This document shows, piece after piece, positions 46,068-49,000 of a stretch of 64,000 nt of DNA. Under the pieces are notes generated by a model, which worked only from the letters and a program-made list of their open reading frames with translations, had not been told where the DNA came from and did no database searches. Position 1 is the stretch's first letter, and each line of letters starts with the position of its first letter. The position numbers were made by a program, and so were the translations under genes. The DNA comes from Candidatus Saccharimonadota bacterium (GTDB lineage: Bacteria; Patescibacteriota; Saccharimonadia; Saccharimonadales; Saccharimonadaceae). The DNA lies in contig JAEETK010000001.1 of the NCBI GenBank assembly GCA_016290315.1, positions 83,157-147,156 on the forward strand. The letters run 5' to 3'.

Positions 46068-49000
46068 ATGTTATTCAGGAGGGGTTCTGTAGCATCTCGC
46101 GCCAAGGGGCGCAAAACAAAAAGGGAGAAAAACAACAAACTAGCCCATATTTTGGTGGCTATGTTCTTGGGTGTTTTTGTCTCGGTTTTTGCATTCAACT
46201 CTCTTGCCGAAATCATCACAGACAACGATGTCCGTGTAGATGTAGATTCGGAACTCACATATTATCTCAACGTCAAAGAAGATGGCGTAGACACTGCTGG
46301 TATAGAGTCTAGTGATAGTCAAATTGCAGATATACGCGGTGGTCGCATTAATGTCACGGACAAACTCCCAGACGGCCTTATCTTCCAAGGCTTTGTTACT
46401 ACCTCTGACGGTACATTTGGCGCTGTATCTCGCTCAGACAGTTCTATTCAATGTTCCGGTAAAGTTGTCGATGACACTAATGAAGAAGCCCTAGATACTG
46501 GTACTTGGAATAATACTCATACTGAATACTATTACCATGGCCTACATTACAACGATACAACTCGTACAGTTTCCTTTACGGCCGAGAAGATTAAAGCCGG
46601 CTGCCAGTTAACTGTCGGCATTATTACGAAGACCCCAGCAACCGTTGACGATCCAGATACTACGCCAATAGAAACCCGAAGAGATTTCTACAACACCGCC
46701 TTTGCGGCCGAGAAAGACGTCACGGCTATCTCTAACACTGTCCATGCTTGGATAGGTAGTTCTAGCACCAGAGTATACAAAGTCATGTATAGATATACAG
46801 GAGACATTCCAACGGGTGCGCCAACTGCGCCAAGCGATCAGTCTTACCCAGCCAATAATGAAGTAGCTGTCAGTATGAATCCAACCCTCGAAGGCTATAC
46901 CTTCTCTGGTTGGACTACAACTGATGCTACGGTCACTGATGGCTCCTTCACGATGCCAGGCCAAGACGTAGAGTTAGTTGGTATTTGGACTAAGAACGCG
47001 ACGGCAACCAAGTATACAGTAACTTATGTAGTAAATGGCGAGAAACCAGCAGACTTTATGCCGCCAACTCAGAAAGAATATGAAGCCGGAGTGAGCGTGT
47101 CGCTGGATTCTACTGAAGCGAATACTGTCATTGACGGCTACCGTTTTAGAGGCTGGAGCACTCAAGACATAGCTCTCAGCGATACCGGCTTCACGATGCC
47201 CGCCCACAACGTTACCATTGTGGGCAGCTTTGAACGTATTAGCTACCAAGTCTGTTATATGTTTGAGGGTTCTGTTATTCCACCAAACTCCGCGTCTATT
47301 CTCCCGCCATGTGAAACCCATTATCCTGGCGATACAGTCACAAGAGCTGCTGATCCGCAAGCTAATGGCTACGACTTCCTTGGTTGGTACAAGAATGCTA
47401 GCTTCACGATGCCAGAAGAAAATGTCACTATTTACGGCGAGTGGATGCGTACGATGGGGAAGTTTGTTCCGACCATCACTAAGACCATTACTAACCCTAA
47501 AGACGAATATATGTATGGCGAAACTGTAAAGTTTAAGATTACCGTTACTAACCCAGAATCTTTCGCCATTACCGATGTCTACTTACAAGAAGAATTGGAC
47601 GGCGCAGTCTTTACGGCGCCAACCGACAATAGCTACACGGTCAAGACTAGCACTATAGCCTTTATTCCTACCATCGCCGCAAACTCTAGTATTGACGTTT
47701 ATGCCGAATACAAAGTAACCGAAAATACCGCTCAAACCCTCACTAACATCGTTGAACTGACTGGTGCTCTGGCTGAAGACCATATTTTAGATACCGACCA
47801 AGAATACAAAGCTACTGTGGACTTCGACACTATCCCTGAGCCTGTGCCAATTACAGGCGTTATCTTCAATGCTTTGCCATATGTAGGGATGGTGGTATTG
47901 GGGGCCGGTATGCTCGTTTGCCTAGTGTTGCTGCCGCGTAGGTTGAAGGTTAACGCTAGGGCTATTCGTTATGTTAGCGGGACTGCTTTTAAATACGCGT
48001 TTCCTGGTATTATTGCTGCTACTTTCGTCTTCGGCGGCCTAATGATTCATTCTGCTATGGCGGCTCCGTATACAGAAGTCATTAAGTCTGTAGAACTCAC
48101 TTCGCAACATACAAGCTACACTAATAATGCGCCTGGTTCTTGGAATGTAGAAAAGAGCGCTGAGTGGATAGAACAGGGTAAGGCGAGAATAACCTTTGAT
48201 GTAAATACAATTGCTAAGGTTGCAGATAATACGCATCTAGATCTCGTAATGGTCATAGATAACTCGGGCTCAATGAGTGGCGACAAGATTACGCAAGTTA
48301 AGCATGACGCTACGGAGCTAATTGAAAGTGTTCTCTCCGACAGCAATAACCGTATTGGACTCGTGAGTTTTGGCTCTAGCGCTTCAAGGCTAAGTAACTT
48401 AACGACCGATAAAACTGCCCTTACGGATTTGGTTAATGGCTTAACGCCTGCGGGTAGTACTAATTACTATGGCGGTTTTAAAAAAGCCGAAGAAGTCCTT
48501 GATGGGTACCAGAAACAGAGTGGCCGCGAGCTAATTATGCTGTTCTTGACTGATGGCTATCCGAATGAAAAGTCTCCGAATGAGATAGCAGAGTATAGGC
48601 TATTAAAAAGCATGTATCCCTACATGACCATCAATGGCATCCAATACGAGATGGGCGATGAGGTGCTTGACCCAATCAAGGTAGTTACGGATAACCAGTT
48701 CATTGCTAATATGGATTCATTGAATAACGTCCTCTTTGAAGCCTCTATTGCGCCATATATCTACGATAACTTCACCCTAGTAGACTACATTAATGACGAA
48801 TATTGGGACGTAGATAGCGTAGACAGTATCGAGACGACTATTGGTGAAACATCTTTAACCCACGATGGCAATACGCCAGTCGTAACTTGGATAATGGATG
48901 AAGTATTGGTATCTGGTCGCTCGGCGCAGCTAATCATAGATGTTACTCTCAAGGATACTGGCGCCATAGCAGAAAACACTTTCTTGCCGACTAATGATCA

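Follow-up and report, generated by a model that had tools for sequence, protein, structure and literature searches.

We report here that a 64,000-nucleotide stretch of contig JAEETK010000001.1 (hereafter the window), from a Saccharibacteria genome, encodes a giant adhesin in which a cell-wall sorting signal and a segment resembling a second signal peptide stand back to back in the middle of one open frame. This gene is very probably a real fusion in which the signals of both parent proteins have been retained. On balance, we favour the reading that two proteins of a sortase pilus system were fused, that the fusion has been maintained, and that its product is processed by sortase and probably by signal peptidase. 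The chance that both of these cleavages take place seems to us about even.

The fused adhesin and its internal signals

The first-pass annotation, made from the letters alone, had noticed a PITG motif at residues 594-597, preceded by EPV and followed by a hydrophobic helix and a basic stretch. All of these elements are present, in frame and at those residues (first transmembrane segment, TM1, and basic loop; Table 1). It had also described a second hydrophobic segment with an AxA site (TM2) leading into about 1270 residues of VWA domain and DUF285 repeats, and the actual length is 1269 residues. The pattern TG-x3-N-x3-Y that it saw in the adhesin and at the C termini of both pilins is likewise borne out by the sequences, which read TGVIFNALPY in the adhesin, TGATMNIAIY in the pilin at 51965-52996 and TGIVMNVLPY in a pilin-like open reading frame at 34526-35467. 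Finally, its topology, with both large domains outside the cell, still holds as an argument, with only three hydrophobic segments in the whole 1934-amino-acid (aa) protein (aa 25-43, about 598-621 and about 648-666 in a 19-residue Kyte-Doolittle scan) and a loop between the last two that carries six K/R and no D/E (aa 623-642, +6). This loop appears to combine the former charged tail of the sorting signal with the former n-region of the second signal peptide.

The protein has what is expected of a sortase substrate, namely a secretion signal, a motif matching those of the other substrates, and a hydrophobic segment with a positively charged tail, except that the signal is not at the extreme C terminus: 1299 residues come after the charged stretch, and the signal is likewise internal in all fused homologues. 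For the N-terminal signal peptide, we infer from the -3/-1 rule that cleavage takes place at SLA/E. TM2 has the features of a cleavable Sec-type signal peptide (PRRLKVNARAIRY...K, then IIAATFVFGGLMI, then A-M-A followed by A-P, with no Pro at +1), and a signal peptidase I site is predicted between A665 and A666.

In the Pfam and NCBIfam assignments, the Flg_new/InlB-B repeats (about aa 236-461) and the DUF11 domain (aa 470-574) precede the internal hydrophobic pair. After the pair come the VWA domain (aa 725-841, with DNSGSMSG as its metal-ion-dependent adhesion site), a Flg_new-like segment (about aa 1004-1083) and about 24 PARCEL/DUF285 repeats (about aa 1183-1925). Neither database reported a thioester-domain family or a peptidase family for the fused adhesin, and the C-module has no C-terminal anchor. 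In an AlphaFold2 (AF2) model of aa 465-1000, the DUF11 part is a beta-sandwich with a predicted local distance difference test score above 90, the two hydrophobic segments form helices at aa 598-625 and 633-661 with a short break between them, and the AxA region is an unstructured stretch with the lowest confidence of the model. The VWA fold is modelled confidently, and its nearest structures are the pilus tip adhesins Mfa5, PitA, SpaC, RrgA and GBS104.

Both halves occur as separate genes

Homologues of the N-module are in their majority stand-alone proteins of 610-700 aa, many of which, the closest included, end in a sorting signal and a stop codon. The C termini of P0123 (...PEPAPLTGIIFNALPYIGLTILGVAIAFVTKIRIRRNAYR), P0124 (...PFTGILFNALPYVGLIMLGITAAFVAKISFRRKAYRE) and a 613-aa group (...PPVITGVNISNIVIFIGVALLGLAGGSMVVLNRKK), each directly followed by the stop, illustrate this, and the first two share the pattern P(L/F)TGI(I/L)FNALPY(I/V)GL...RR(N/K)AYR(E). 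The internal signal of the fused adhesin aligns column for column with the terminal signals of these stand-alone orthologues, which stop 5-10 residues into the basic tail. This match and the conservation of the segment in all close homologues found show that the motif did not arise by chance. The stand-alone orthologues are the first gene of pilus operons, and their loci, those of P0123 and P0124 included, have the order adhesin-pilin-S26-sortase.

The C-module likewise has mostly stand-alone homologues, VWA(-PARCEL) proteins of about 700-770 aa, and a typical N-terminal signal peptide was found in 47 of its 120 best matches (e.g., ...PSFA/, ...AFA/ and ...NVLA/). Homology to the C-module starts right after this signal peptide (xPVKS(I/V)xIxSExxSY against YTEVIKSVELTSQHTSY), and TM2 aligns with the position of the signal peptide in these 47 proteins. 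At loci L021 and L022, a 1101-aa VWA protein, which has a signal peptide of its own (...ISVAA/ADYTVPIKSITLTSAHTSF) and lacks a sorting signal, is encoded by the fifth and last gene of an operon adhesin-pilin-SipA-sortase-VWA. In a relative, therefore, such a pilus locus has the VWA protein as a partner with a gene to itself, and TM2 of the fused adhesin is the former signal peptide of that protein.

Some fused and stand-alone VWA modules (P0247, P0249, P0250 and P0258; L021, 12266-15571) end without PARCEL repeats. Their alternative C terminus is a Cys/Tyr/Asn-rich domain of about 500-700 aa that ends in ...GDGS..PW.(L/I)E. Pfam scans of two of these proteins, P0249 and that of L021, found no family over this domain.

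Both halves are thus found as complete separate genes, with the junction at the gene boundaries. The first-pass annotation had offered the fusion of two ancestral genes by loss of a stop codon as an alternative to processing. The fusion itself stands, and such an origin would not exclude the processing that we propose. A simple loss of the stop between neighbours does not stand, as the VWA gene is absent or last in the canonical stand-alone loci; because it never directly follows the adhesin gene there, a rearrangement or an insertion would have been needed.

The fused form across genomes and protein clusters

A scan of one genome per species matched the junction continuously in 10/10 loci, from five Saccharibacteria metagenome-assembled genomes (MAGs). 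The open frames of these loci span 1295-1912 aa, and nine of the ten are terminated by a stop codon, mostly after a C terminus of the ...RP(G/A)WY type; one frame is still open where its contig stops, and three lose their 5' part at a contig edge. In a single MAG (CAMJKD01; L014, L015, L016, L019 and L020) there are five fused paralogues, whose open frames measure 1295-1762 aa (a contig end cuts the shortest), and only one of the five adjoins pilin, SipA and SrtB genes. The length differences between these paralogues coincide with different numbers of PARCEL-like units, of which a crude pattern count gives 8-17. Further fused genes lie on metagenome contigs, at L004 (80% identical), L001 and L009, and at L010 an intact fused gene of 1695 aa is called, the last 1225 aa of which are inside the locus read.

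A search of 1.84 billion representative proteins, clustered at 50% identity, found the fused layout in at least 14 clusters, in 12 of which a single match spans the whole junction. In these 12, the full-length proteins have 1311-2058 aa, with the junction at internal positions. All 11 clusters that include the N terminus show exactly three hydrophobic segments, and the three N-terminally truncated ones keep the internal pair. The internal signal, which the first-pass annotation had called very unusual, is therefore a conserved family architecture (10/10 loci and at least 14 clusters), with one known analogue, the anchor of the streptococcal Zmp proteins discussed below.

The annotation had further asked whether orthologues are one gene or two. 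They are one gene in all ten genome loci, and two at L002 and wherever the halves stand alone. The L002 adhesin is 87-92% identical to that of the window and lies next to a syntenic uvrD, and its linker is 71 nt shorter, with two genes as the outcome: the first ends in ...PLTGIIFNALPYAGINTLS and a stop, and the second begins with MLKYSIPCFAMIGIILGGIVAKNVSA/ENYTEVIK. TM2 thus serves as the ordinary N-terminal signal peptide of a separate gene in L002, and this 71-nt deletion shows that the split and fused states interconvert.

Constraint at the junction

We used mean pairwise identity among 13 close homologues as the measure of constraint. It is 0.79 over the 100 aa upstream, 0.84 over EPVPxTGxIFNALPYxG (the motif and the first half of TM1), 0.40 over the rest of TM1 and the loop, 0.46 over TM2 and 0.82 over the first 45 residues past the AxA site. 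The C-terminal half of TM1 and the loop come in four lengths (35, 39, 41 and 47 aa), always in frame, and every loop shown retains K/R. Positions -3 and -1 hold small or aliphatic residues in 13/13 close homologues (AMA, AIA, VSA, VAA, TSA and TYA) and in 11 of the 14 distant fused clusters. Distant fused members have other flavours of the motif (SPKTLD, NPKTLD, LPKTDAD, SPKTFD, PLTED and PVLTG), and similar flavours are found at the true C termini of stand-alone homologues (NPLTLDN..., TPKTEDE... and VPDTLKN...).

This pattern bears on the possibility that the former signals serve only as a two-helix membrane anchor, with the full-length protein left uncut and both modules outside. Such an anchor needs just hydrophobicity, whereas PxTG and IFNALPYxG keep an identity of 0.84 and the remainder of the hairpin has drifted to 0.40-0.46. 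Small residues at -3 and -1, with a steep increase in conservation directly behind them, are what a cleaved signal peptide typically shows, the motif flavours co-vary with those at true C termini, and the gene sits in a sortase operon. We consider an uncut hairpin unlikely, even though the predicted topology and the helices of the AF2 model are compatible with it and the C-module has no other anchor.

Proposed processing

Under the reading that we favour, in which sortase and probably signal peptidase process a maintained fusion, the first 622-635 residues correspond to a complete precursor of a pilus-tip-type adhesin, from which the stop is missing, so that the frame enters the former signal peptide of a VWA-PARCEL protein. 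The N-module would be exported by Sec until TM1 halts the transfer and keeps the basic loop in the cytoplasm; TM2 would then restart export, leaving both large modules extracellular. The class B sortase would cut between T596 and G597 and attach the N-module either to the cell wall or to pilin. A housekeeping signal peptidase I would cut after A665 and free the VWA-PARCEL module, which could be secreted or remain non-covalently associated, and a hairpin peptide of about 69 aa would stay behind in the membrane. Fusion would ensure that both adhesin parts are made in equal amounts and exported at the same place.

Several points weigh against this proposal. We know of no class B or pilus sortase that uses a sorting signal that is not C-terminal. 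Motif conservation alone would be weak proof of use, because 0.84 is barely above the 0.79 of the flanking domain. The -3 residue is poor in some distant fused members (K in P0258 and P0260, M in P0329), and the C-module has no recognisable anchor that would hold it after cleavage. The in-frame TTG at 47943 could give some independent translation of the C-module. In addition, several metagenomic relatives carry lesions downstream of the junction: a TAA at codon 936 of L004, an A5-to-A4 frameshift directly after YTVPVK in L006-L008, on contigs from three samples, and a frameshift after ISFMSS in P0150. Because of these lesions, the C-module may be dispensable or variably expressed; they may reflect on/off variation, decay or assembly noise.

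The A-run in question, directly behind the internal signal peptide, has four A in L006-L008 (at about 12000) and five in L009 (at about 7900). This difference puts the VWA module out of frame and could be either a slippage-type switch that turns the C-module on and off or a sign of decay. L009 also changes abruptly in the middle of the VWA domain, from about 8100, to sequence that no longer encodes VWA. The GC content is 50% over the whole L009 locus and 42-45% in the window and the close Saccharibacteria loci; the L009 contig is probably chimeric or carries an insertion. At L001, the frame is broken just past the junction by a tandem duplication of about 100 bp (2547-2740) that resembles a metagenome misassembly.

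The window gives no support for expression of the C-module on its own, from a start inside the gene. The only in-frame start that would keep the whole TM2 signal peptide is the TTG mentioned above, which is without usable Shine-Dalgarno spacing. Promoter-like sites number 11 in 8.7 kb, where 17.7 would be expected, and none of them is close to the junction. At the PITG codons (47840-47858), a hairpin resembling a terminator was dismissed as being at chance level, with seven such hairpins found against six expected; by eye, its stem is not kept in L002.

It could also be that sortase cuts and signal peptidase does not, with the N-module going to the pilus or the wall and the VWA-PARCEL module staying tethered by TM1, the loop and TM2. 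This would account for an anchorless C-module staying on the cell; the poor -3 residue in some distant members and the signal peptidase homologue of the locus, which is SipA-like and without its catalytic Lys, also speak for it. However, AxA-like sites are conserved in 13/13 close and 11/14 distant fused proteins, and also in the stand-alone homologues, whose signal peptides look cleavable, and the site of the window protein falls in a stretch predicted to be unstructured. We judge this partial processing to be improbable. Finally, an assembly or sequencing error, or a recent and functionless stop loss on the way to a pseudogene, might be suspected from the split in a relative 87-92% identical (L002), from the nonsense or frameshift lesions farther downstream in other relatives and from the misassembly-like duplication in L001, but it is essentially refuted, as independent assemblies all read through the junction, where the first-pass annotation had wanted an error excluded, the frame being kept in 13 close homologues from independent samples despite four linker lengths and 40% identity and in at least 14 clusters at 50% identity, with nine of the ten genome-locus frames stop-terminated, most at the conserved C terminus, and five fused paralogues kept in one MAG.

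The pilus operon and the organism

The genes that follow the adhesin (Table 1) complete the gene set of an FCT-like (fibronectin-binding, collagen-binding, T-antigen), SipA-dependent pilus operon: adhesin, pilin, SipA-like protein and class B sortase. The same order recurs in L005, L011, L020, L021 and L023. L011, from a Ca. Nanosyncoccaceae MAG, is syntenic with the window (thrS..uvrD-adhesin-pilin-SipA-SrtB-ssb), with flanking proteins 95-100% identical and an adhesin of 1829 aa that is about 90% identical. On this gene order and flank identity, the window organism can be taken as established to be a member of the Saccharibacteria family Nanosyncoccaceae.

Table 1 Features of the fused adhesin gene and of the pilus operon, in window coordinates.
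Feature	Residues	Coordinates	Strand	Description
Fused adhesin gene	1934 aa	46068..51872	+	single frame without internal stop
N-terminal signal peptide	1-47	46068..46208	+	basic n-region, h-region aa 25-43, ends SLA/E; hydropathy 2.46
N-module	48-596	46209..47855	+	N-terminal domain without family assignment, Flg_new/InlB-B repeats, DUF11; orthologous to stand-alone adhesins
Sortase-type motif	P594-I595-T596-G597	47847..47858	+	EPV directly before; conserved context EPVPxTG(I/V)IFNALPYxG
TM1	598-622	47859..47933	+	VIFNALPYVGMVVLGAGMLVCLVLL; hydrophobic part of sorting signal, predicted stop-transfer helix; hydropathy 2.32
Basic loop	623-644	47934..47999	+	PRRLKVNARAIRYVSGTAFKYA; predicted cytoplasmic
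TM2	645-665	48000..48062	+	FPGIIAATFVFGGLMIHSAMA; putative internal signal peptide ending A-M-A, then APYTEV
C-module	666-1934 (1269 residues)	48063..51869	+	conserved N terminus APYTEVIKSVELTSQH, VWA, Flg_new-like segment, PARCEL/DUF285 repeats
Backbone-type pilin		51965..52996	+	DUF7601; weak match to streptococcal pilin isopeptide domain; signal peptide; C-terminal signal VDTGATMNIAIY...ARKKLANKA
SipA-like signal peptidase homologue	169 aa	53025..53534	+	Pfam S26; predicted pilus assembly factor rather than active peptidase
Class B sortase		53537..54310	+	catalytic Cys in LLSTCD; TIGR03064 E 1.4e-40; best PDB matches SrtB enzymes

The sortase scores 139 bits against TIGR03064, below the cutoff of 153.75, and is thus class B-like and not a curated equivalog. 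The best PDB match of the S26 homologue is Streptococcus pyogenes SipA (4n31, E 6e-14, against 1e-3 for true signal peptidases), and Ser occupies the position of the general-base Lys. It keeps the nucleophile Ser (VSMNG). We compared it with the published properties of the SipA of the S. pyogenes FCT operons, which has lost both catalytic residues, the Ser nucleophile and the general-base Lys (PMC4049620); the protein of the window, in which only the general-base Lys is lost, represents an intermediate state. Because it is SipA-like and the catalytic Lys is missing, this homologue is unlikely to be the enzyme that would cut at AMA/AP.

A second class B sortase gene (35741-36433) adjoins the pilin-like open reading frame at 34526-35467. 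An in-frame stop codon (TGA, 36263-36265) interrupts it ahead of LLSTCD, the motif with the catalytic Cys, and the frame goes on past this stop; the gene would be either a pseudogene or a case of read-through. The pilin-like open reading frame is 28% identical to the main pilin and has a full sorting signal (ILTGIVMNVLPY...RVIKKKHK). With the annotated ATG as start, no signal peptide is obvious at its N terminus, which may mean that the start is mis-set or that the gene has decayed. On the opposite strand, ahead of the adhesin region, lies a gene (38905-40176, -) for a 423-aa secreted protein, the C-terminal region of which weakly matches the type IV secretion system pilin and TrbC/VirB2 families (E 3e-5).

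Discussion

By convention, a sorting signal is taken to lie strictly at the C terminus, and most prediction pipelines search nowhere else. In the family described here, a sorting signal that is complete and conserved lies within the protein and is followed by a conserved internal signal peptide. Because such pipelines seek sorting signals only at the C terminus, they would miss these sortase substrates and mis-describe them as two-pass membrane proteins. If the processing is real, it is a simple means for a bacterium of tiny genome to obtain two surface proteins from a single gene, in matching quantities and exported at the same site.

More speculatively, the fused adhesin might be a surface "polyprotein". 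Sortase and signal peptidase would then yield an adhesin linked covalently to the pilus tip and a VWA-PARCEL partner, set free at the same site, that docks to it non-covalently; together they would form a 1:1 two-part tip adhesin with which these epibiotic Saccharibacteria hold host bacteria. We hold this idea only tentatively. If it were true, the multi-copy, fast-diverging paralogues (five in one MAG; adhesin identity about 90%, against 95-100% for the flanking genes) would amount to a variable repertoire for host range. From a biological perspective, a multi-copy and rapidly diverging adhesin family and a previously undescribed FCT-like sortase pilus operon are candidates for a role in the attachment of Saccharibacteria to their hosts.

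Comparison with known systems

Our literature search found no published description of this fused Saccharibacteria adhesin family or of its sortase pilus operon. Attachment in Saccharibacteria has been studied up to now mainly for type IV pili and the newly described Pam pili, and the "Pam" pilus of a candidate phyla radiation (CPR) preprint is a different, donor-strand-exchange system.

Among the known proteins close to the C-module are the stand-alone VWA-PARCEL (DUF285) surface proteins of Bacilli MAGs, which are 42-52% identical to it from the first residue after their signal peptide and have the same domain order (VWA, Flg_new-like segment, PARCEL repeats). Unlike the C-module, each is encoded by a gene of its own (about 700-770 aa) and starts with an ordinary signal peptide. 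Structurally, the VWA domain of the C-module is closest to those of the VWA pilus tip adhesins (RrgA, GBS104, SpaC and PitA, and Mfa5 of type V pili), and, similar to these, a stand-alone homologue of the C-module is encoded in a pilus operon. The Gram-positive VWA tip adhesins attach via a C-terminal sorting signal of their own, whereas the C-module and its stand-alone homologues have no sorting signal and carry PARCEL/DUF285 repeats or another C-terminal domain instead.

At the level of the locus, the window has the same gene set as the FCT pilus operons of S. pyogenes (Cpa/AP1, FctA, SipA/LepA and a class B-type sortase). It differs from them in belonging to Saccharibacteria, in the adhesin domains (Flg_new and DUF11), in a SipA homologue that keeps its Ser, and in an adhesin gene that runs on into a second protein.

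The closest parallel for the internal signals themselves is the N terminus of the streptococcal IgA1 protease (ZmpA) and of ZmpB, ZmpC and ZmpD, which has a signal peptide, an LPXTG motif, two transmembrane segments and a second signal peptidase site (PMC3518915). For the second hydrophobic segment of the Zmp proteins, a role as a further signal peptide with a separate signal peptidase site was proposed (PMC3518915; PMC7939560). The fused adhesin has these elements in the same order, with a large extracellular domain last. In the Zmp proteins, however, the motif lies in the N-terminal region, after the signal peptide, whereas a folded adhesin of about 550 residues precedes the motif (residue 594) in the fused adhesin. 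There is no sequence homology between the two, and the Zmp proteins are peptidases. The fused adhesin locus contains a class B sortase within an FCT-like pilus operon, whereas the sortase that acts on Zmp is not named in PMC3518915 and PMC7939560. Both halves of the fused adhesin also exist as separate genes, which documents its origin by fusion. The comparison suggests that the fused adhesin works like the Zmp anchor; it is not a member of the Zmp family.

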